From Chloroflexota bacterium (GTDB taxonomy: Bacteria > Chloroflexota > Dormibacteria > Aeolococcales > Aeolococcaceae): DNA of 64,000 nucleotides. Each line of letters starts with the position of its first letter. Within the stretch, counting starts at the first letter, position 1. Location of the stretch: the NCBI GenBank assembly GCA_005880985.1, contig VBIQ01000006.1:5088-69087 (forward strand), given 5' to 3'. The notes under the pieces are model-generated. The model did not search any database. It worked only from the letters and a program-made list of their open reading frames with translations, and was not told the origin of the DNA. Positions 36,850 through 47,825 of this stretch are shown piece after piece. The position numbers and the translations under genes are program-made.

Positions 36850-37614
36850 ATGCTGCTGGCCATCGACGTCGGCAACTCCAACATCGTCGGCGGGGTGTTC
36901 GACGGCGAACGCCTGGTGGCCGACTTCCGTCTCCACACCGAGGCGCTGGCCACCGGAGACGAGCTGGGCCTGGTGGTGGCAGGGCTGCTCGGCCTGCGCA
37001 ACATCGAGCGTGGAACGGTCGATGCGGTGGTGGTCAGCAACGTGGTGCCGACCCTGTCGCGCAGCATCGATGACCTCTGCCACCAGTACTTCGCGGTGGC
37101 TCCGATGCACGTCGGCCCCGGGATGCGCACCGGCATGCGCATCGTGGTGGAGGATCCCCGCCAGGTCGGGGCCGACCGCATCGTCAACGCCATCGCCGCC
37201 TTCAACGCCTACGGCGGACCGGCGGTGATCGTCGACCTGGGAACCGCCACCACCTTCGACGCCATCTCCGACCGCGGCGACTACCTCGGCGGGGCGATCG
37301 CCCCCGGCATGATCATCAGCCTCAACGCCCTGGTCGCCCGCGCCGCCAAGCTCAACCGTGTGGACCTGGTCGCACCGCCGTCGGTGATCGGCCGGACCAC
37401 CAACCTCGGCGTCCAGTCGGGCATGGTCTACGGGTACGTCGGCCTGGTCGAGGGCATCGTCGGCCGCATGAAGGCCGAGCTCGGCGGCCGCGCCACGGTG
37501 ATCGCCACCGGCGGGCTGGCGGAGCTGATCGCCGCCAACACCACCTGCATCGACACCGTCGACCAGCGGCTGACGCTCGATGGGCTGCGCCTCTTCTACG
37601 GCTTGAATCAGTAA
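36850..37614 (+). CDS. coaX: Type III pantothenate kinase
   Basis: MLLAIDVGNSN start with DxGTAT-like VDLGTATTFD and GGLA motifs. Confidence 0.9.
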   Translation: MLLAIDVGNSNIVGGVFDGERLVADFRLHTEALATGDELGLVVAGLLGLRNIERGTVDAVVVSNVVPTLSRSIDDLCHQYFAVAPMHVGPGMRTGMRIVVEDPRQVGADRIVNAIAAFNAYGGPAVIVDLGTATTFDAISDRGDYLGGAIAPGMIISLNALVARAAKLNRVDLVAPPSVIGRTTNLGVQSGMVYGYVGLVEGIVGRMKAELGGRATVIATGGLAELIAANTTCIDTVDQRLTLDGLRLFYGLNQ

Positions 37615-37737
37615 CTGCATGGCACAGGCGGGGGAGGGGTCTCCGCAGCGACGGCCCCTCCCCCGCCCAGCGCCAAGCGGCGGGTACTGCTGAGCAACCG
37701 CTTGCAACGCGCGGCCTTGGCGCAGCGAGGCCGGGGG

Positions 37738-38220
37738 TCAACCCTCTCGCCAGACCTCATGACGGGGATGAGGATCCCCATGGCCAGTGGTCTTGGTAAG
37801 GAGACAGCGTGAGATGTCGAACTCGAAGAGGAGGTCGATGTTGGGCGGGACTGGGACTTGAAGATGGGCCCGTTCGGCGGCGAACTGCTCACCGAGTCGC
37901 GCCCGAACTCCCGCCTCGGTGGTGAGCCGGGCCGTGCCAGTGAGATAGAAGGCGTCCTCGTTGTCCGGACAGGGAAACGAGTGCAGCGCATAGCGGCCGT
38001 CGCGCCGGAGATCGGTCTGCTTCGGGGAGGGGATGATGAATGCAAAGATGCCCTGGTTGGTGACCACCGGGCAGATTGGGTGAGTCCGCGGTCCTCCATC
38101 TCGTCGGACCGTGGCCAGAAAAGCCAGGCCGACACCGAATTGGTAGAGCAGCGCTCTTCCAGCGTCCACTAGATCTGGTCGGGCACGGGCCAGCCCCTCC
38201 CAGGTCGCCATGGGTGACAT
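37738..38220 (-). CDS. Pyridoxamine 5'-phosphate oxidase-like FMN/F420-binding split-barrel protein
   Basis: About 160 aa from ATG MSPMATWEG. ALLYQFGVGLAFLATVRRDGGPRTHPI...IFAFI matches the PNPOx split-barrel N-terminus. Codon usage is visibly atypical (cga, aga, gga, cta, cca). Confidence 0.55.
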   Translation of the reverse strand: MSPMATWEGLARARPDLVDAGRALLYQFGVGLAFLATVRRDGGPRTHPICPVVTNQGIFAFIIPSPKQTDLRRDGRYALHSFPCPDNEDAFYLTGTARLTTEAGVRARLGEQFAAERAHLQVPVPPNIDLLFEFDISRCLLTKTTGHGDPHPRHEVWREG

Positions 38221-38259
38221 GTTGCCTGGAGCGGCGCGCCGATGCCGTAGCATCGGTGC

Positions 38260-39306
38260 ATGGCACTCGCGCTTGCTGATGCCCCTGCGCCGGCTCTGCG
38301 GATCGGCGATCTCGAGCTGAGCTCCCCGATCCTCGTCGCCCCGATGGCGGGGATCACCGACGTGCCGTTTCGGCGGATCGCCATGGAGATGGGGGCGGGC
38401 CTGGTGTGCACCGAGATGGTGGCCGCCGAGGCGGTGGTGCGCAGCGTCGAGGCGAGCCTGCGGCTGCTGCAGTTCCCCGACGACACGCGCCCGGTGGCGG
38501 CGCAGCTGGTCGGCTCGGATCCCGCGGTGATGGCGGCAGCGGCGCAGGTGTGCGCCGAGCGCGGCGCCATGGCGGTCGACGTCAACCTGGGATGCCCGGT
38601 GCGCAAGGTGGTGGGCCTGGGATGCGGTGCCGCGCTGGCGCGCGACGTCGCGGCGACGGCGCGCGTGCTGGCCGCGATCGTCGACGCCGTCGACGTGCCG
38701 GTGACCGCCAAGATGCGTCTCGGCTGGGACCAGGGCAGCATCAACGCGCCCCTGTTGGCGCGGTCTCTGGCGGACGTCGGCGTTGGCGCGGTCACCGTCC
38801 ACGGCCGCACCCGCTGCCAGGGCTACGCGGGCTGGGCGGACTGGAGAGAGATCGCCGGGGTTCGCGCCGCGGTCGACATCCCCGTCTTCGGCAGCGGTGA
38901 CCTGCGCGATCCCGAGCAGATCGCCCACCACATCGAGAGCGGACACGTCGATGGCGTGGTCATCGCCCGCGGCATGCTGGGCAACTTCTGGCTGGTGCGC
39001 CAGGCGGCGCACCGGCTCGCCACCGGCGAGAACCTGCCCGACCTTCCCTTCGTCGAGCGCATCGAGCTCGGCCGCCGTCACCTCGAGGAGCTGATCGCTC
39101 ACTACGGTGAAGCGCGCGCCTTGCGGATAGGCCGCAAGTACGTTGCCTGGACGATCAAGGGTTGCGACGGCGCCTCGCGGCTGCGGGCGATGGTGCAGGA
39201 CCTCGACAGCCGCGAGCGCCTTGACGCGATCTACGCGGAGGCGCTCGCCGCGGGAGAGCGACCCGAGGGCCCGTACCAGCCGATCTTCACCAGCGGGGAG
39301 GGCTGA
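38260..39306 (+). CDS. dus: tRNA-dihydrouridine synthase
   Basis: Motifs VAPMAGITD, VDVNLGCP and a TVHGRTR catalytic region. Confidence 0.9.
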   Translation: MALALADAPAPALRIGDLELSSPILVAPMAGITDVPFRRIAMEMGAGLVCTEMVAAEAVVRSVEASLRLLQFPDDTRPVAAQLVGSDPAVMAAAAQVCAERGAMAVDVNLGCPVRKVVGLGCGAALARDVAATARVLAAIVDAVDVPVTAKMRLGWDQGSINAPLLARSLADVGVGAVTVHGRTRCQGYAGWADWREIAGVRAAVDIPVFGSGDLRDPEQIAHHIESGHVDGVVIARGMLGNFWLVRQAAHRLATGENLPDLPFVERIELGRRHLEELIAHYGEARALRIGRKYVAWTIKGCDGASRLRAMVQDLDSRERLDAIYAEALAAGERPEGPYQPIFTSGEG

Positions 39307-39709
39307 CAGCCGGCGGGCTGGTCAGCGCGGCCGCGCCCCCGATGCGACGGAGGGGGGTCGAGACCAGCGAGGTTCGCGGGCAAATAAAAAGGGCGCCCCC
39401 AGCAAGCCAGGGACGCCCCGAGAGGGGGGGCAATAGAGGTGTCGCTGTAGGCTGAGAGGATACCGGCTGTATCAACAGGGCGTCAAGCAGCCCACCGGGG
39501 GCGAGCATACCCCGCCGGCACCCGCCGTCGGAGGCGGCCAGATCGGGGCGGTGGCCACCCCAGCAGGCGTCCCCTCCCCGGTGGAGACCAGATCCTCGAC
39601 CGGGGTCCATGTCGCTCGGGGCTCCCGTATACTCCGCTGCTCTCATGATTTGACGGGCACCGGCCGCTCCCTGGCAGCAGTCCGGCGGAGGCGCGGGGGC
39701 CCTGACGCG

Positions 39710-40186
39710 ATGTTGGTGACCCTCATGCTCGACAAACCGGTCCTCATCACCCCGGAGGGCCTGGACAAGCTCCAGCAGGAACTCGACCATCTCCGGACCG
39801 AGGTCCGGGCCGAGGTCGCAGAACGGATCAAGTACGCCAAGGAGTTCGGCGACCTGTCGGAGAACGCCGAGTACGAGCAGGCCAAGAACGAGCAAGGGAT
39901 GATCGAGGGGCGGATCCTCACCCTCGAGCGCATGGTGCGCAACGCCGTGATCATCGAGGAGCATCACGACGGCGTCGTCCAGGTCGGCTCGGTGGTCACC
40001 GTCCGCGACGAGTTCGGCGAGGAGGCCTTCACCATCGTCGGACCGGCCGAGGTCGACGTCGCCAACGGCCGCATCTCCATGGAGTCGCCGGTGGGCAAGG
40101 CGCTGATGGGCCACCGCGCCGGCGAAGCCGTCGAGGTTCAGAGCCCCGCGGGTACGCGCTCGCTGTCCATCGTCTCCGTGTCCTGA
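39710..40186 (+). CDS. greA: Transcription elongation factor GreA
   Basis: Coiled-coil N-terminus ([44 protein letters not shown]) and an FKBP-like C-terminus. Start is the ATG at 39710 or 39725. Confidence 0.85.
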
Positions 40187-40213
40187 GCCCGGCTCGGGCT
40201 ACCCTGTCGAGCC

Positions 40214-41806
40214 GTGCCCGAGGACGCGCTGATCGCCGAGCGCCGTCGCAAGGTCGACGAGCTGGCGGCGCTTGGCGTCGCCGCGTACAACGTCGACTTC
40301 CGTCCGGACACGACCCTGTCCGAAGCGCTGGCGCGGCTGGCGGCGTTCGAGGAGTCGTCACCCCCGCAACCCGATGGCGGCCCATCCGCCGGGCCCGTGG
40401 TCGCCGTCGCTGGGCGCATCGTCCAGCTCCGCGTCATGGGGCGGATGGTGTTCGCCCACATCGAGGACGAGGAGCAGCGGCTCCAGGTCTGGCTGCGCTA
40501 CGAGCGGCTGGGCGAGGACGCCTGGCGGATGGTGGAGCTGCTCGATCTGGGCGACATCATCGGGGTGCGCGGGCCGATGGCCCGCACCCGGCGGGGAGAG
40601 CCGAGCGTGCTCGCCGACAGCGTGACCCTGCTGGTCAAGGCGCTGCGCCCACCGCCGGAGAAGTACCACGGCCTGCAGGAGCAGGAGACCCGATTGCGCA
40701 AGCGCTACCTCGACCTGCTCGGCAATGCCGACCAGCGCCTGCACTTCTCCCGGCGCACCCACATCGTCGCCGCGGTGCGCCGCACCCTCGACAGCCACCG
40801 CTTCCTCGAGGTGGAGACCCCCATCCTCCAGGCGATTCCCGGCGGCGCCAACGCCCGGCCGTTCATCACCCACTGGAACGCGCTCCACATCGACGTCTAC
40901 CTCCGCATCGCCATCGAGCTGCACCTGAAACGGCTGCTGGTGGGCGGCTACCGTCGCGTCTACGAGATCGGCCGGGTCTTCCGCAACGAAGGTCTGTCAC
41001 CGCGGCACAACCCCGAGTTCACCATGCTCGAGGCCTACGAGGCCTACGGCGACTACCGCATCATGGGCTTGCTCACCGAGGAGATCATCGTCGCCGCCGC
41101 CAACGCCGTCGGTCCGCAAGCGGTTGCCGACGAGGCCGGCGGCTCGCCCGGCAGCAACCCGCTGGCGCGCCGCTACGGAGGCCGCGAGCTCGACCTAAGC
41201 CCGCCGTTCCGCAGCGCCCGCATGGTCGACCTGGTGCGCGAGACGTGCGGCCTCGATGCGATGGCCGCCTGGGACGACGGCCGCCTCGAGGAGGAGGCGC
41301 GGCGGCTCCAGGTCGAGGTGCCGGCCGGGGCCGGCCCCGGTGTCATCCTGATGGCGATCTACGAGCAGCTGGTGGAGCACACCCTCTGGGATCCCACCTT
41401 CGTGCTCGACTACCCCGCCGAGGTCTCCCCCCTGGCGCGACGCCGCAGCGACGATCCCCGGTTCGTCGAGCGCTTCGAGCTGATCGTCGCCGGGCGCGAG
41501 CTGGCCAACGCCTTCTCCGAGCTCAACGACCCCATCGACCAGCGGCGCCGCTTCGAGCAGCAGGCCGGGCTCCGCGCCGCCGGGGACGTCGAGGCGCATC
41601 CCCTCGACGAGGATTTCCTCGAGGCGATCGAGACCGGGATGCCCCCCGCCGGTGGCCTGGGCATCGGCATCGACCGGCTGGTGATGCTGCTCACCGACCG
41701 GGCCAGCATCCGCGAGGTGCTGCTCTTTCCCACCATGCGGCCGCGGCACGCCGCGGGCACAAGTGGACAGCTGCCCGATGTCGGCGGCGAGGAGCTGGAA
41801 GGCTGA
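40214..41806 (+). CDS. lysS: Lysine-tRNA ligase, class II
   Basis: OB-fold N-terminus and class II motifs ([20 protein letters not shown]). Confidence 0.9.
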
Positions 41807-43062
41807 TGCTCTCCGTCCAGCAGGTGCGCGACAATCCGGAGCGCATCCGCGAGGCGGGCCGGCTCAAGGGGGAGCCCGCGCCCGTCGACGAGATTCTCGA
41901 ACTCGACGAGCAGGCACGGGCGCTGCGCACCCAGGCGGAGACCCTCCGCGCCGAGCAGAACCGGGTGAGCCGCTCGTTCCGCGGGACTCCCGGTGGGCCG
42001 GAGCGTCAGCGGCTGGCCGAGCTGAAAGAGCGGATCCAGGCGCTGCTCGACGACGTCGGCGAGCTGGAGCACCGTCGGGACGAGCTCCTCCTCGAGCTTC
42101 CCAATCCCCCGCACGAGTCGGTCCCGGTGGGCACCAGTGAGGCCGACAACCTGGTGGTGCGCAGCTGGGGTGAGCCGCGACGCTTCGACTTCACTCCGCT
42201 ACCCCACTACGAGCTGGGTGAGCGCCTCGGCATCTTCGACTTCGAGCGCGCCGCCCGGATCTCCGGCAGCCGCTTCGCCGTGGTCCGTGGCGCCGGGGCG
42301 CGTCTCCAGCGCGCCCTCGCCACGTTCATGCTCGATCTGGCCACAACCCGGCACGGCTATACCGAGGTCGCCCCGCCATACCTGGTCCGGCGGGAGGTGA
42401 TGGTGGGAACGGCCCAGCTGCCCAAGTTCGAGGACGACGCCTTCCACACCGAGGGCGACATGTTCCTCATCCCCACCGGAGAGGTCCCGGTGACCAACCT
42501 CTATCGGGAGGAGATCCTCGACGGCCAGCTGCTGCCCATCCGCCACGTCGCCTTCACCCCCTGCTGGCGCCGCGAGGCAGGCGCCGCCGGGAAGGACACC
42601 CGCGGCTATCTCCGTCTCCACCAGTTCGACAAGGTCGAGCTGGTCAAGTTCGTCACTCCCGAGAGCTCGCTCGACGAGCTCGAGAGCCTGGTGAGCGACG
42701 CGGAGACGGTTCTGCAGGAGCTCGGTCTCCACTACCGGGTGGTCCTGATGTGCACCGCCGACATGGGCTTCGCCCAGTGGAAGAAGTACGACCTCGAGGC
42801 CTGGGCGCCGGGTCTGGAGCGCCACCTCGAAGTGTCGTCGTGCAGCGTCTTCGCCGACTTCCAGGCGCGGCGAGCCAACATCCGCTTCCGCGCCGCCGCC
42901 GGGGAGCGGCCGCGCTTCGTCCACACCCTCAACGGCAGCGCCCTGGCGCTGCCACGCACGGTCGCCGCGCTGCTGGAGTCCTACCAGGAGAGCGACGGGA
43001 CGGTCACCATCCCCGCCGCCCTCCGGCCCTACCTCGACGGTCTGGAACGGCTGACCCCGTGA
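41806..43062 (+). CDS. serS: Serine-tRNA ligase
   Basis: Coiled-coil N-arm plus class II motifs ([14 protein letters not shown]-type motif 3). Start overlaps the lysS stop. Confidence 0.9.
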
Positions 43063-43559
43063 CCGACGCGGACCAGGCGCGGGAGCTCGACGAGCTCGAT
43101 GGGCTCTGGCTGAACGACCGCAGCGAGTTCCAGCAGAACTTCGTCCACGGACTGCGCAATCCCATCGGACTGCACATCCAGTACCGCCTCGAGGAGCGGC
43201 TGGTGGTCGGTGACTGGACCGCGGACGAGCGCCACGTCGGCTTCCCCGGCGTCGTCCACGGCGGCCTGCTCGCGGCGATCCTCGACGACGTGATGGGGCG
43301 CTGGTCGGCGATGCGTCATCGCTGGGTGGTGACGGCGCGGATGGAGACCCGGTTCCGGGTCCCGGCGCCGGTGGGGGTGGCGCTGCGGATCGAGGCGTGG
43401 GTGACCCGCGAGCGGACCCGCACCCTGCAGGCCGAGTCGCGCATCCTTCTGCCCGACGGCGCCGTCGTGGTCGAGGCGACGGCGACCTACCTCGCGATCA
43501 CCGGCGCGCTTCGGGAACGCATGGTCGCCGCCTGGCCGGGGTTCGCCGGCTTCGCGTAG
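43059..43559 (+). CDS. PaaI-family hotdog thioesterase
   Basis: [17 protein letters not shown] hotdog active-site segment. GTG overlaps the serS stop. Confidence 0.7.
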
Positions 43560-43619
43560 GACGAGCCGGCTCTCCGAAGTCCTACAGTCGTTCTCGTACC
43601 CCCCGCCCCGAGGAGATCG

Positions 43620-44057
43620 ATGATGACGGTTGCCACGCCGACCAAGGTGCTGTACACGGCCGAGGCTGTCGCCACCGGGGATGGCCGCGGCGGGCATGTC
43701 CGCAGCTCCGACGGCCTTCTCGACATCGACCTTGCGCTGCCGCTCGAGCTGGCCGGGCCGGGAGGCCACACCAACCCCGAGCAGCTCTTCGCAGCCGGCT
43801 ACGCGGCCTGCTTCCACAGCGCGCTGAAGCTCGTCGCCCGCCGGCTCGAGGTCGACGTCACCGACAGCACCGTGACCGCACGAGTCGGCCTCGGCGCCGG
43901 CGGCGACGGCGGCTTCGTGCTCACCGTTGCGCTCGGAGTCCACCTCCCCAACGCTGACGCGGGCCAGGCGCAGCGGGCCGCCGACGCCGCCCACAAGGTG
44001 TGCCCCTACTCGAACGCGACCCGCGGCAACATCGACGTCACCGTGTCCGTCGTGTGA
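43620..44057 (+). CDS. ohr: OsmC/Ohr family peroxiredoxin (organic hydroperoxide resistance)
   Basis: Two conserved Cys regions (AAGYAACF and KVCPYSNAT) typical of Ohr. Confidence 0.85.
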   Translation: MMTVATPTKVLYTAEAVATGDGRGGHVRSSDGLLDIDLALPLELAGPGGHTNPEQLFAAGYAACFHSALKLVARRLEVDVTDSTVTARVGLGAGGDGGFVLTVALGVHLPNADAGQAQRAADAAHKVCPYSNATRGNIDVTVSVV

Positions 44058-44079
44058 GCCGTCCGGTGCCGCCATCGCG

Positions 44080-44757
44080 TTGAGCGCACCCGGCGTCTCC
44101 GCTCTCCTCTTCGACGTCGATGGCACCCTCCTCGACAGTGTCTATCAGCACGTTCTCGCCTGGCACGAGGCGCTGCAGGAGGAGCACATCGAGCTGTCGG
44201 TGTGGCGCATCCACCGCCGCGTCGGCATGAGCGGCGGGTTGTTCGTGGACGCGCTGGCGCGAGAGACCGGGGCCTCGATCGACGCGGCGCGGGCGGAGCG
44301 GCTGCGCCGGCGGCACGCTCAGGGTCTGCTGGCGCGGCTGGCGGAGATCCGGCCCCTGCCCGGCGCGATCGCCCTGCTGACGCATCTGCACAATCTCGGC
44401 ATGCCCTTCGCCCTGGCGACCAGTGGCCGGCGCGAGACCGCCGACCAGACCATCTCCCTCCTCCATCTGCCGGGGGGCGTTCCCGTCGTCACCCGCGACG
44501 ACGTGGTGCGGGCCAAGCCCGACCCCGACCTCTTCCTCGCCGCCGCCGACCGCCTCGGCGTCCCCGCCACCGGCTGCTTCGTCGTCGGCGACAGCGTCTG
44601 GGACCTGCTCGCAGCCCAGCGGGCGCGAGCGCTCGGCGTCGGCCTGCTCTCGGGCGGATACGGACGCGACGAGCTGGAGCGCGCCGGAGCCTATCGCGTC
44701 TACAGCGATCCCGCCGACCTGCTGGCGCACCTCGACGAGATCGGAGTGCGAGGGTAG
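44080..44757 (+). CDS. HAD-superfamily hydrolase (phosphatase, subfamily IA)
   Basis: Motif I LFDVDGTL, motif II ATSG and motif III VVGDSVWD. Probable TTG start. Confidence 0.7.
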   Translation: MSAPGVSALLFDVDGTLLDSVYQHVLAWHEALQEEHIELSVWRIHRRVGMSGGLFVDALARETGASIDAARAERLRRRHAQGLLARLAEIRPLPGAIALLTHLHNLGMPFALATSGRRETADQTISLLHLPGGVPVVTRDDVVRAKPDPDLFLAAADRLGVPATGCFVVGDSVWDLLAAQRARALGVGLLSGGYGRDELERAGAYRVYSDPADLLAHLDEIGVRG

Positions 44758-44779
44758 TCGGGTGCCACAGAATCACCCC

Positions 44780-45610
44780 ATGCGATTCGGTCTCGACATC
44801 GCCCAGCAGCGGCTGGAGTGGTCGGAGATCGTCGACCGCGCCCGCCTTGCCGAGGAGCTGGGCTTCGACGGCGTCTGGGGCTTCGACCATTTCAAGCCGA
44901 TGTACGGCGAGGGCCCGGGCAACTGCTTCGAGGGGATGTCGACTCTCGCCGCGCTTGCGACCGCGACAAGCCGCGTGCGGTTGGGACTGCTGGTCACCGG
45001 GGTGACCTATCGCCATCCCTCGGTGCTCGCCGCCGAGGCGGTCACCATCGACCATGCGTCCAAGGGCCGGCTCGAGCTCTCCTTGGGAGCGGCGTGGTTC
45101 GCCGAGGAACATGAGCAGCTGGGTATCCCCTTGCCGCCCCTGCGCGAGCGCATCGACCGGCTCGAGGACGCGCTCGAGGTCATCCGCCGTCTGTTCACCG
45201 GTGAGGAGGTCTCCTACACCGGGCGCACCCTGTCGCTCGACCACGCCCGCCTGCTGCCACGCCCGGTGCAGCAACCGCATCCCCCCGTCTGGATCGGTGC
45301 CTCCGGTGAGCAGCGGATGCTTCCCCTCGCCGGCCGGCTGGCCGACGCCTGGCATTGCTTTGGTGGTCCCGAGACCCTGCGGCGTAAATGGGCGGTGGTG
45401 GCCCGGGCGGCGGAGGCGGCCGGACGCGATCCAGGGGCGATCCTCCGGGCCGGCTCGCTCTCAATCAGCGGAGACCTCAATGCGGTGCGACGCTTCATCG
45501 ACGCGCAGGTCGCGGAAGGAACGGGATATCTGGTGTGTGGCTGGCCGACCGAGGGCCGTGCTCGCGTCGAGGAGTTCGCTCAGCGGGTGATGTCAGACGC
45601 CGCTGGCTGA
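44780..45610 (+). CDS. Luciferase-like monooxygenase family oxidoreductase (probably F420-dependent)
   Basis: MRFGLDIAQQ...GFDGVWGFDHF...LGLLVTGVTYRHP, the LLM TIM-barrel pattern. Confidence 0.75.
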   Translation: MRFGLDIAQQRLEWSEIVDRARLAEELGFDGVWGFDHFKPMYGEGPGNCFEGMSTLAALATATSRVRLGLLVTGVTYRHPSVLAAEAVTIDHASKGRLELSLGAAWFAEEHEQLGIPLPPLRERIDRLEDALEVIRRLFTGEEVSYTGRTLSLDHARLLPRPVQQPHPPVWIGASGEQRMLPLAGRLADAWHCFGGPETLRRKWAVVARAAEAAGRDPGAILRAGSLSISGDLNAVRRFIDAQVAEGTGYLVCGWPTEGRARVEEFAQRVMSDAAG

Positions 45611-45649
45611 CCGATCGAGCGGAGCAACCGCGGCGGGCGGCGGTCGAGG

Positions 45650-46324
45650 GTGATCGTGCCGGCGGAGCGACTCGACCTCTGGCTCGCCGGCTTCGCGGAG
45701 CGACACGGCTCTCTGCAGTGGACGGCCACGCCGGAGCAGGTGGTGGTGACCGGTGCCGACGGATGCACCGCCGAGTGCGAGGTGCCGTTCCCACCGCTTG
45801 CGCCGGATGAGGGCGCTCCGTTCGCTGGTCTGGTCGCGCACGCGTGCGCGGAGCGCAGCGTCGGGGTGGTGCTGGTCCGCCTGGGGGGCTACGCGGTCGG
45901 GGTGTTCCGTCGGTCGCAGCTGGTCGCCTCCAAGGTGGGATCGCGCCCGGTCCACGGCCGCGCCGCCGCCGGCGGCTGGTCGCAGAAGCGATTCGCCCGC
46001 CGGCGCGAGGGACAGGCGCGCGTCGCCCTCGAGGCCGCGGCGGACGCGGCCGCGCGTGTCGTGGCTCCGGTTGCCGGCAGCCTCGATGCCGTCGTCACCG
46101 GCGGAGACCGCCACGCGGTGGAGGCGGTGCTCGGCGACGCGCGTCTCGGGGTCCTGCTTCCGCTGCGGGCCGGCCGCCTGCTCGACGTGCCGGAGCCGAG
46201 GCAGAGGACGCTTGCGGAGGTGTTTCGGCGGAGCAGCGCGGTGCGCATTCGCATCGTCGAATCGCCGCTTCACCGGCACGGCAAGGAGAAGGAGGAGGAG
46301 CAGCCGCCGCAACACGAAATGTGA
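45650..46324 (+). CDS. eRF1/Vms1-like release-factor-fold protein (acVLRF1-like, putative peptidyl-tRNA hydrolase)
   Basis: 224 aa with GGWSQKRFARRREGQ. This has a GxxQ catalytic-loop pattern followed by an RFAR motif, as in eRF1 (GGQSALRFARL) and Vms1/ANKZF1. Basic C-terminal tail. Confidence 0.5.
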   Translation: MIVPAERLDLWLAGFAERHGSLQWTATPEQVVVTGADGCTAECEVPFPPLAPDEGAPFAGLVAHACAERSVGVVLVRLGGYAVGVFRRSQLVASKVGSRPVHGRAAAGGWSQKRFARRREGQARVALEAAADAAARVVAPVAGSLDAVVTGGDRHAVEAVLGDARLGVLLPLRAGRLLDVPEPRQRTLAEVFRRSSAVRIRIVESPLHRHGKEKEEEQPPQHEM

Positions 46325-46368
46325 CCGTTTCGGCGCGAGCGCTGCGGTGAGCGCCGTGCGCCGGCGGC

Positions 46369-47007
46369 TCAGCTGTGTCGCGCCGAACCGGAGAAGGCTG
46401 CGACGGCGCCGAGGGTGACGTAGACGCCGCCGGTGACATACCGCTGCCGCCGTGCCCGCAGCAGCCGCCGGCGCAGCCAGCCACCGGCGGCGGAGCCGAC
46501 CAGAGCGTAGGTCCCGTCGCTGCAGAGCCCCAGCGCCATGAAGATGCCCCCGAGCATGAGGACCTGCAGCGCGACGCGTCCCTTCGCGGGGTCGACGAAC
46601 TGGGGAAGGAAGGCGAGAAAGAAGAGCGCGGTCTTCGGATTGAGCACGTTGACCACCGCTCCCTGGGCGACGATCCGCGGCAGTGGCGCCCGGGCTCGGG
46701 GAGCGGCGTCGACGGGGGCTTCGTGTGTGAGGATGCGCCGCAGTCCAATGACGATGAGATAGGCGGCGCCCGCCAGCTTGACGGCGGTGAATGCCCCACT
46801 CGAGGCGACGAGCAATGCCGACAGGCCCAGCGCCGCGGCGGTGACGTGCACCGAGGTGCCGATATGGACGCCGAGCACCGAGGCGAGGCCGGCGGTGCGC
46901 CCCTCGTCGACGCTGCGGGTCACGATGTACAGGACTGAGGGGCCGGGGATCACCAGCAGGGTGAGGGCGGCGACCCCGAAGAGGGTGACCATCGACGCTC
47001 CGGGCAT
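46369..47007 (-). CDS. LysE/RhtB-family amino-acid exporter
   Basis: About 212 aa, six predicted TM helices, N-terminal LLVIPGPSVLYIV motif. Confidence 0.8.
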   Translation of the reverse strand: MPGASMVTLFGVAALTLLVIPGPSVLYIVTRSVDEGRTAGLASVLGVHIGTSVHVTAAALGLSALLVASSGAFTAVKLAGAAYLIVIGLRRILTHEAPVDAAPRARAPLPRIVAQGAVVNVLNPKTALFFLAFLPQFVDPAKGRVALQVLMLGGIFMALGLCSDGTYALVGSAAGGWLRRRLLRARRQRYVTGGVYVTLGAVAAFSGSARHS

Positions 47008-47057
47008 AAGGGCACAGCCTACCGCGCCCTCGGCCGGCCGTTCGCTGCGGTGGTGGC

Positions 47058-47825
47058 TCAGTCGACCTGCTCGGTGGGGCGGACGAGCAGCTCGTTGAGG
47101 GCGACGCGGCGCGGTCGCGTCACCATGAAGGTGACGATCTCGGCGATGTCGCCGGCGCTCATGCGCTCGATGGCGCCGAAGCGGCGCTGCATGGTGGCGA
47201 CCACCTCGGGGTCGGTGTTGTGCGAGGCGAGCTCGGTGTCGACCGCTCCCGGCTCGACCAGACCGACTCGCACGTGCCGGCCGGTCACCTCCTGCCGCAG
47301 GGCGTCGCTGAAGGCGTTGACCGCCCACTTGCTGGCGTTGTAGGCGCCGCTGCCGACCCGGGCGACCCGTCCCGCGACGCTGCTGACGTTGACGATGTCG
47401 GCGACGCCGCGCGGCTCGCCCGCGGCTGCCTCGAGCAGATGGGGGAGGGCGGCGTGAGTCAGCGTCATCAGGGCGGTGACGTTGAGGTCGAGCATGCGCC
47501 GCCACTGCGAGGTGTCGGCACCCTCGATGCGGCCCAGCAGCATGACCCCGGCGTTGTTGAGGAGGATGTCCAGCCTCCCGAGCTCGCTCACCGTCCGCCG
47601 CACCGCCTCCCGGGCGTCGTTCTCCTTGGTGACGTCGGTCTCGATGACCAGCGCGGTGCCGCCGGCACCACCGATGCGCGCGGCGAGGTCGTCGAGCCGG
47701 TCGCGACGGCGGGCGACCAGGGCCACGGCCGCGCCCTCGGCGGCGAAGGCGGCCGCGCTTGCCTCTCCGATGCCGCTCGAGGCGCCGGTGACGAGGGCGA
47801 CCGTTCCGGTCAGTGACGCGGACAT
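47058..47825 (-). CDS. Short-chain dehydrogenase/reductase (classical SDR)
   Basis: TGASSGIG cofactor motif, NNAG, and catalytic S...YNASK. Confidence 0.85.
   Translation of the reverse strand: MSASLTGTVALVTGASSGIGEASAAAFAAEGAAVALVARRRDRLDDLAARIGGAGGTALVIETDVTKENDAREAVRRTVSELGRLDILLNNAGVMLLGRIEGADTSQWRRMLDLNVTALMTLTHAALPHLLEAAAGEPRGVADIVNVSSVAGRVARVGSGAYNASKWAVNAFSDALRQEVTGRHVRVGLVEPGAVDTELASHNTDPEVVATMQRRFGAIERMSAGDIAEIVTFMVTRPRRVALNELLVRPTEQVD

Follow-up and report, generated by a model that had tools for sequence, protein, structure and literature searches.

Introduction

The closest described relatives of the gene examined here belong to the archaeo-eukaryotic release factor (aeRF-1) superfamily, within which acVLRF-1 forms the actinobacterial and chloroflexi branch of the Vms1-like clade. 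This family was described computationally by Burroughs and Aravind in 2019, and its GGxSQ motif (also given for the archaeal aVLRF-1), its conserved arginines, its short N-terminal extension and its standalone two-part architecture are already published (PMC6514570). According to the same paper, the superfamily binds large-subunit ribosomal RNA (rRNA) through its conserved arginines, and prokaryotic VLRF-1 proteins are standalone (PMC6514570). Since that description the family has been part of Pfam and NCBIfam, and RefSeq genomes carry the name 'acVLRF1 family peptidyl-tRNA hydrolase'. The nearest characterised relative is Vms1/ANKZF1, the release factor of eukaryotic ribosome-associated quality control (RQC). 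In yeast, the ABCF protein Arb1 occupies the E site of Vms1-60S complexes, where it is proposed to position the peptidyl-tRNA (PDB 6r84; PMC7026593; PMC8012679). Here, we analyse an acVLRF1 gene carried by a 64,000-nucleotide stretch of DNA from a Chloroflexota bacterium (contig VBIQ01000006.1, positions 5,088 to 69,087, assembly GCA_005880985.1), referred to below as the window. An earlier note, made from the sequence alone, had read the product of 45650-46324 as an eRF1/Vms1-like release-factor-fold protein of the acVLRF1 type. We find that the protein is an ordinary member of this family, and its features make a role in releasing nascent chains from stalled ribosomes fairly probable.

The window protein belongs to the acVLRF1 family

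The protein matches Pfam PF18859 ('Actinobacteria/chloroflexi VLRF1 release factor') over residues 69-201 with an E-value of 8e-42 and a score of 142.9 bits against a cut-off of 27.1, the alignment spanning profile positions 1-130 of 130. NCBIfam NF041024 ('acVLRF1 family peptidyl-tRNA hydrolase') aligns with residues 3-202 through profile positions 5-207 of 208 and scores 253.4 bits against a cut-off of 125. Both models therefore score above their curated cut-offs, and the assignment proposed in the earlier note stands. Weaker, overlapping Pfam matches came from the related bacterial aeRF families 10 and 2. We considered family 10 (PF18854) as the identity of the protein and rejected it, because its 75.3 bits, although above its own threshold, fall far under the score of PF18859 on the same residues. 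The equivalog model for aRF1/eRF1 (TIGR03676) stayed below threshold (17.6 bits, cut-off 234.7), and Pfam found no domains in the protein other than those of release-factor families. In a sequence search of the PDB, Aeropyrum aRF1 (3agk) was the only entry matched, and marginally so (E 0.037), with GGWSQKRF of the window protein aligned to GGQSQRRY.

On this basis, the protein is an ordinary member of the catalogued acVLRF1 family and has every defining feature that could be tested. Among the candidates scored, 6094 database homologues were found at E<=1e-3, the nearest named relatives being Candidatus Dormibacteraeota and Mycobacteriales metagenome-assembled genomes. The gene itself is already known, since the Pfam, NCBIfam and RefSeq naming is in place: the standard models name it, and a 100% identical protein is present at NCBI ('MAG: hypothetical protein E6J14_04685 [Chloroflexi bacterium]', on a 195-kb contig).

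Predicted fold and conservation of the release-factor loop

An AlphaFold2 model of the protein, built from a 27-sequence alignment, has a mean predicted local distance difference test score (pLDDT) of 92 and a predicted template modelling score of 0.84. It comprises a family-specific N-terminal extension, a release-factor peptidyl-hydrolase (RF-PH) domain that is the counterpart of the eRF1 middle domain, and a C-terminal tail (Table 1). The extension is composed of a helix (residues 5-19), three strands (22-26, 30-35 and 40-44) and a second helix (57-66), with W11, F15, R18, H19 and G20 as its conserved residues, and it occupies the place of the stop-codon-recognition domain of eRF1. The RNase-H-like fold that follows runs to residue 203 in the model. 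Its consecutive strands 70-77, 80-87 and 90-98 lead into a loop and then into a long helix (111-137). The mean pLDDT drops to 63 over residues 101-110 and, because the model is otherwise confident, we read the loop here as flexible. The pLDDT of the C-terminal tail is 66-84, and homologues stop at varied points in this region with unrelated sequence.

In a Foldseek search with the model, the top matches were all aRF1, eRF1, Pelota or Vms1 (E 1e-5 to 1e-3). The structural comparison figures were 14.7 for aRF1 (8hku), 13.6 for eRF1, 10.6 for Dom34, 10.5 for the eRF1 middle domain (2hst), 10.3 for Vms1 (6r86_R), 9.3 to 8.2 for Balon and at most 8.5 for generic RNase-H-fold proteins (kinases, RuvC). 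The model thus predicts the eRF1 middle-domain fold for the window protein. Judged by its length (224 residues), the model and Pfam, the protein lacks the other two domains of eRF1, that which reads stop codons and the C-terminal one that binds a GTPase.

The motif GGWSQKRFARRRE carries the GGxSQ signature in the loop preceding the long helix, followed by an arginine-rich stretch at the start of that helix. None of the 120 close homologues departs from the window protein at G108, G109, S111, Q112, R114 or R117-R119, and 119 of the 120 share F115; in the 27-sequence alignment all nine positions are invariant. Position 110 varies (W110 here, 45977-45979), being Trp in 86, Gln in 26, Thr in 6 and Arg in 2 of the 120 closest homologues, such that 26 of these proteins display an aRF1-like GGQSQ. 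Conservation extends to more distant members. A profile search of 1.84 billion cluster representatives recovered 1242 clusters at E<=1e-3, of which 337 reached E<=1e-30. In the 150 best of these 1242 representatives of 50%-identity clusters, position 112 is Gln in 138, Ser in 8, Ala in 1 and a gap in 3. The invariant Gln112 is the second Q of GGxSQ and lies two residues past the position of the eRF1 GGQ glutamine, which is filled by Trp110 in the window protein.

The earlier note had likened this motif, a GxxQ loop plus RFAR, to the catalytic loop of eRF1 and Vms1/ANKZF1, and had put forward, among others, two checks: a Foldseek comparison of a predicted model with eRF1 domain 2 and Vms1, and conservation of the glutamine. 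The likeness and both checks came out in its favour. The 'basic tail' that it placed after the motif has to be withdrawn, as R114 and R117-R119 form the N-terminal end of helix 111-137, and the true C-terminal tail is of mixed charge.

A sub-clade with the sequence GGSSS(G/T)RFARRR (P0121, P0150, P0157 with GGSSA, P0160, P0165, P0178, P0209, P0222 and P0267) has lost the putative catalytic Gln while keeping the arginine helix. Going by their sequences, its members may be inactive or differently acting paralogues.

Proposed function and its alternatives

We consider it reasonably probable that acVLRF1 is a single-component, codon-independent releaser of nascent chains from stalled ribosomal complexes. 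The protein would bind where the A site is vacant, on a stalled ribosome or on a large subunit still charged with peptidyl-tRNA, requiring neither a stop codon nor a GTPase; its codon independence follows from the lack of a decoding domain. The arginine helix would dock on large-subunit rRNA and the loop would bring Gln112 into the peptidyl-transferase centre, where the nascent chain would be detached from the tRNA. Release would most likely proceed by ester hydrolysis as in eRF1, a mode favoured by the di-glycine and by the closer structural likeness to aRF1/eRF1 than to Vms1; alternatively, the 3' CCA end of the tRNA might be cut off as by Vms1/ANKZF1. The protein would thus serve as a back-up rescue factor acting alone, and not as part of a multi-gene system.

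Several observations weigh against this proposal. The invariant Gln is two residues away from the eRF1 GGQ glutamine and the equivalent position is variable (W/Q/T/R), so that the catalytic geometry of Gln112 is not established. About 8 of the 150 representative clusters read GGSSS instead of GGxSQ, and part of the family therefore manages without the Gln. In the closest relatives (L087-L089) the acVLRF1 protein is 78-80% identical to that of the window, compared with 87-95% for the flanking luciferase-like monooxygenase (LLM), LysE and short-chain dehydrogenase/reductase (SDR) proteins (window 44756-47825), which makes acVLRF1 the faster-evolving gene. The earlier note had called the family essentially uncharacterised experimentally, and the literature that we searched agrees: it contains no biochemical or genetic test of any acVLRF1 member, acVLRF-1 is mentioned only by the 2019 computational paper, and a paper on the Streptomyces WblC regulon names ArfB without referring to this family. 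'Peptidyl-tRNA hydrolase' as a family name is a computational inference, and for Vms1/ANKZF1 it has been disputed whether the activity is that of a hydrolase or a tRNA nuclease (PMC6514570, PMC7026593).

That dispute bears on the first alternative, in which acVLRF1 is a tRNA endonuclease and not an ester hydrolase. It would cut the 3' CCA off peptidyl-tRNA on the split 50S subunit, as Vms1/ANKZF1 does on 60S, the tRNA would be repaired by the CCA-adding enzyme and, in Actinomycetota, a neighbouring ABC-F ATPase might assist. The window protein does fall in the Vms1-like clade, and reviews credit Vms1/ANKZF1 with cleavage of peptidyl-tRNA, after which TRNT1 recycles the cut tRNA, and place the ABCF protein Arb1 in the E site (PMC7026593); however, acVLRF-1 shares its di-glycine (GGxSQ) with the hydrolases eRF1 and aRF1 whereas Vms1 has GxuQ/GSQ, and Burroughs and Aravind make the case that the clade as a whole has hydrolase activity (PMC6514570). 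The structural scores, too, are nearer to aRF1 and eRF1 than to Vms1. Gene order points both ways, as an ABC-F gene lies directly downstream of acVLRF1 in 22 of 80 actinobacterial loci, yet there is none in the window or in three related contigs at 62-66% protein identity. Taking these points together, we regard endonuclease activity as unlikely.

A second alternative is a non-catalytic A-site binder which, like Balon, would protect or silence idle or stalled ribosomes and release nothing. This we hold to be very doubtful. The Gln and both glycines are present in 120/120 close homologues and the Gln in 92% of the diverse representatives, a pattern typical of catalytically active families (PMC6514570), and it is this invariance of the Gln that makes a Balon-like role less likely, even though non-catalytic roles have been proposed for many bacterial aeRF-1 families (PMC6514570) and the GGSSS sub-clade lacks the residue. 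In addition, the window protein is without the flanking domains of the three-domain aeRF-1 proteins related to Balon.

The open reading frame and its start

The acVLRF1 open reading frame (ORF) has position-specific GC fractions of 0.82/0.53/0.87 at the three codon positions in a window of about 72% GC. Since this is the pattern of the real genes in the window, the ORF is a true coding gene, and the antisense and out-of-frame ORFs that overlap it are the usual artefacts of high-GC DNA. Both the ORF list and the sequence give a GTG start, and several homologues begin at the same point. A GAGG at 45646-45649 directly touches this GTG, and its spacing better suits a second GTG at 45656. The sequence thus suggests that the true start may lie two codons later; the choice between the two starts alters nothing else. 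An upstream extension was rejected, as the NRGGRRSR encoded there has no canonical start codon and only vaguely resembles the family N-terminus 'AAGGGRW'. The TGA stop of the upstream LLM gene (45608-45610) is in frame with the GTG start of acVLRF1, 13 codons apart (45608-45652). Read-through from one gene into the other was considered and set aside as an apparent coincidence, because the corresponding genes of the 80%-identical relative L087 do not share a reading frame.

Gene context in the window and in close relatives

The acVLRF1 gene is the last of a co-directional string of housekeeping genes on the forward strand, which occupies 36850-45610 before acVLRF1 (Table 1) and includes two aminoacyl-tRNA synthetase genes and a tRNA-modification gene (Dus, tRNA dihydrouridine synthase). 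The gap to the preceding LLM oxidoreductase gene is 39 nt. Beyond the LysE gene, the genes for an SDR and for glucose-6-phosphate dehydrogenase also converge on acVLRF1 from the opposite strand. A scan for sigma-70 promoters and intrinsic terminators around acVLRF1 gave nothing above shuffled expectation, and an Rfam scan found just three tRNAs, all distant from acVLRF1, and no transfer-messenger RNA (tmRNA).

Table 1. Positions of acVLRF1, of the parts of its product and of neighbouring genes in the window.
Feature	Position (nt)	Strand	Residues	Remarks
CoaX	36850	+		First in the co-directional string
Dus	38260	+		
GreA	39551	+		
LysS	40214	+		
SerS	about 41800	+		
4HBT thioesterase		+		Between SerS and OsmC
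OsmC	43620	+		
HAD hydrolase		+		Between OsmC and the LLM gene
LLM/Bac_luciferase, F420-type oxidoreductase	44756-45610	+		Exactly at the cut-off of TIGR03560 (F420-dependent LLM family); directly before acVLRF1
acVLRF1	45650..46324	+	1-224	224 codons plus stop; GTG 45650 is the first canonical start
N-terminal alpha/beta extension	45650..45847	+	1-66	Family-specific; AlphaFold2 secondary structure, block pLDDT >=96
RF-PH domain, RNase H fold	45854..46252	+	69-201	PF18859 and structural matches
Predicted catalytic loop	45944..45985	+	99-112	Between strand 3 and the long helix; ends G108-G109-W110-S111-Q112
Motif GGWSQKRFARRRE	45971..46009	+	108-120	GGxSQ signature, then arginine-rich start of helix 111-137
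C-terminal tail HRHGKEKEEEQPPQHEM	46259..46321	+	204-224	Mixed charge, not conserved
LysE translocator/exporter	46369-47013	-		Downstream, convergent with acVLRF1

The arrangement of an LLM gene, acVLRF1 and a convergent LysE or SDR gene is kept in the three closest relatives; in one of these (L087) LysE is missing and the SDR gene stands directly after acVLRF1. In the three contigs at 62-66% protein identity the neighbours are wholly different, namely FtsH and an SCO4848-family protein, pyruvate dehydrogenase E1, and dihydrodipicolinate synthase with a glycosyltransferase. Across the 80 actinobacterial loci in which gene order was counted, we found no recurrence of serS, the thioesterase, OsmC, HAD, LysE, SDR or glucose-6-phosphate dehydrogenase genes beside acVLRF1, and the LLM-type matches there are scattered paralogues of approximately 30-35% identity. 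Because the neighbours change at 62-66% identity and none is conserved in the 80 loci, acVLRF1 is functionally standalone in the lineage of the window. The earlier note, which had named the F420-type oxidoreductase and LysE exporter as flanking genes and seen no obvious operon partners, was accordingly right on both counts for this lineage; acVLRF1 does lie 39 nt behind the LLM gene, an arrangement kept only in the closest relatives.

A LysE-family exporter gene also adjoins acVLRF1 in Salinispora (L084, 6261-6974) and in two actinobacterial metagenome-assembled genomes (L008 and L022), in differing orientations. LysE was tried as a recurring partner and rejected, as the Salinispora protein is not orthologous to that of the window (30% identity over 97 residues). 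The L022 protein is 41% identical to it, and the repeated adjacency is probably a coincidence.

That acVLRF1 might have no ribosomal role at all, being instead an RNase-H-fold enzyme or nucleic-acid binder tied to the metabolism of its neighbours (F420-dependent redox or amino-acid export here, iron-sulphur cluster assembly in Actinomycetota), is extremely improbable: it would fit the position 39 nt behind the LLM gene, in an arrangement that the closest relatives retain, and a position 12-158 bp after the last suf gene in 9 of the 80 loci, but not the complete turnover of neighbours described above, nor the precise coincidence of the conserved residues with the release-factor loop and rRNA-binding helix, nor the weaker scores of RNase-H-type matches outside the release-factor superfamily.

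ABC-F and suf genes beside acVLRF1 in Actinomycetota

Outside the window, gene order in Actinomycetota shows a different recurrent setting. In the 22 loci where the ABC-F ATPase gene is next downstream, it lies on the same strand at a distance of 78-332 bp, and in 13 further loci it is found 0.7-3.5 kb downstream. The neighbouring ABC-F protein contains two ABC_tran domains and an ABC_tran_Xtn linker, and scores at or near the cut-off of NF000355 ('ribosomal protection-like ABC-F'). The last suf gene, which in nine loci ends shortly upstream of acVLRF1, is sufT (DUF59). Loci with this suf/ABC-F setting are L003, L007, L014-L020, L029-L033, L039-L042, L053, L064-L067, L070-L075, L080 and L084-L086. 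In Micromonosporaceae the order is sufR-B-D-Rieske-C-S-U-T, LysE or another gene, acVLRF1, ABC-F, HTH_58, enoyl-CoA hydratase and an ABC exporter. In one 266-residue homologue (P0191), the acVLRF1 domain follows a stretch of 26 initial residues that matches the C-terminal part of SufT. A SufT-acVLRF1 fusion was rejected here, as only these 26 residues are shared and the sequence probably arose by a frameshift, or by the merging of neighbouring sufT and acVLRF1 genes during gene calling.

One could imagine from this setting that acVLRF-1 provides the release step of an RqcH-independent large-subunit quality control, paired with the adjacent ABC-F protein in Actinomycetota, a phylum in which rqcH and mutS2 occur in 0/3,213 genomes and arfB in 2,245/3,213 (PMC11633108). 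We judge such a pairing distinctly improbable. The ABC-F protein would position peptidyl-tRNA from the E site and the chain would be set free by acVLRF-1 acting in the A site, with the window copy working alongside an ABC-F protein encoded elsewhere. If true, the pairing would give yeast Vms1-Arb1 a prokaryotic counterpart that might also be its evolutionary forerunner. However, the adjacency of suf, acVLRF1, ABC-F and enoyl-CoA hydratase genes may just as well reflect a gene order inherited within a single phylum. In actinobacteria generally, suf and an ABC-F gene tend to lie near each other and, since the ABC-F adjacency is limited to one phylum (it is absent from the window's own lineage) and the intergenic gaps are large enough for separate promoters, a functional partnership is possible but unproven.

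Distribution

Members of the acVLRF1 family are present in at least 582 species genomes. No phage matches were found for acVLRF1 and no true plasmid matches, the sole 'plasmid' match being an 11.85-Mb Nonomuraea replicon, and the defence-system models of PADLOC gave no match. These results rule out an anti-phage defence or mobile-element gene; acVLRF1 is of housekeeping character and neither mobile nor defence-associated.

Significance

The window gene itself adds nothing new, and the interest lies mainly in the open biochemistry of its family, which is widespread in bacteria, is related to eRF1 and Vms1 and keeps an intact catalytic-type loop. Its main hosts are Actinomycetota, which are without the RqcH/MutS2 pathway and of which approximately 30% are also without ArfB (PMC11633108). 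Given such hosts, release activity, once shown, would make acVLRF1 a new kind of bacterial ribosome rescue factor. It would also bear on the origin of the release step of eukaryotic RQC and on the question of ester hydrolysis versus tRNA cleavage within the clade.

Comparison with known release and rescue factors

ArfB/ICT1, which hydrolyses peptidyl-tRNA on stalled ribosomes as a single component and independently of the codon, is a predicted functional analogue only (PMC6514570). Its catalytic fold, the bacterial RF-PH domain, is unrelated, and it uses a C-terminal helix to sense the empty mRNA channel (PMC6514570). Balon, the aeRF1-derived hibernation factor (e.g. Rv2629 or MSMEG_1130), is a protein of 360-375 residues as opposed to 224, and the invariant GGxSQ sets acVLRF-1 apart from it. 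Nor is the window protein an orthologue of eRF1/aRF1. Compared with these factors and with Pelota/Dom34, it has neither the N domain (NIKS-type codon recognition) nor the C domain that engages eRF3 or aEF1-alpha, and relative to eRF1/aRF1 the invariant Gln is displaced by two residues, with Trp at the position of the GGQ glutamine.

The relationship to Vms1/ANKZF1 (eVLRF-1) is one of clade and not of orthology, because the accessory domains are absent and the motif variant is different. The Rei1-type zinc finger, ankyrin repeats, VIM motif and treble-clef domain of Vms1 all have no counterpart in the window protein, and GxuQ/GSQ is replaced by GGxSQ, such that only the core domain is held in common. 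The RQC partner of Vms1 is likewise missing from acVLRF-1 hosts, as the absence of rqcH from all 3,213 Actinobacteriota genomes attests (PMC11633108). By comparison, the published acVLRF-1 family and the window protein are alike in every respect tested: the GGxSQ motif, the arginine-rich helix, the loss of the codon-recognition and C-terminal domains, the short N-terminal extension, the standalone gene and a host of the Actinobacteria/Chloroflexi type. There is no substantive difference between the two, the C-terminal tail and the start site being lineage-specific.
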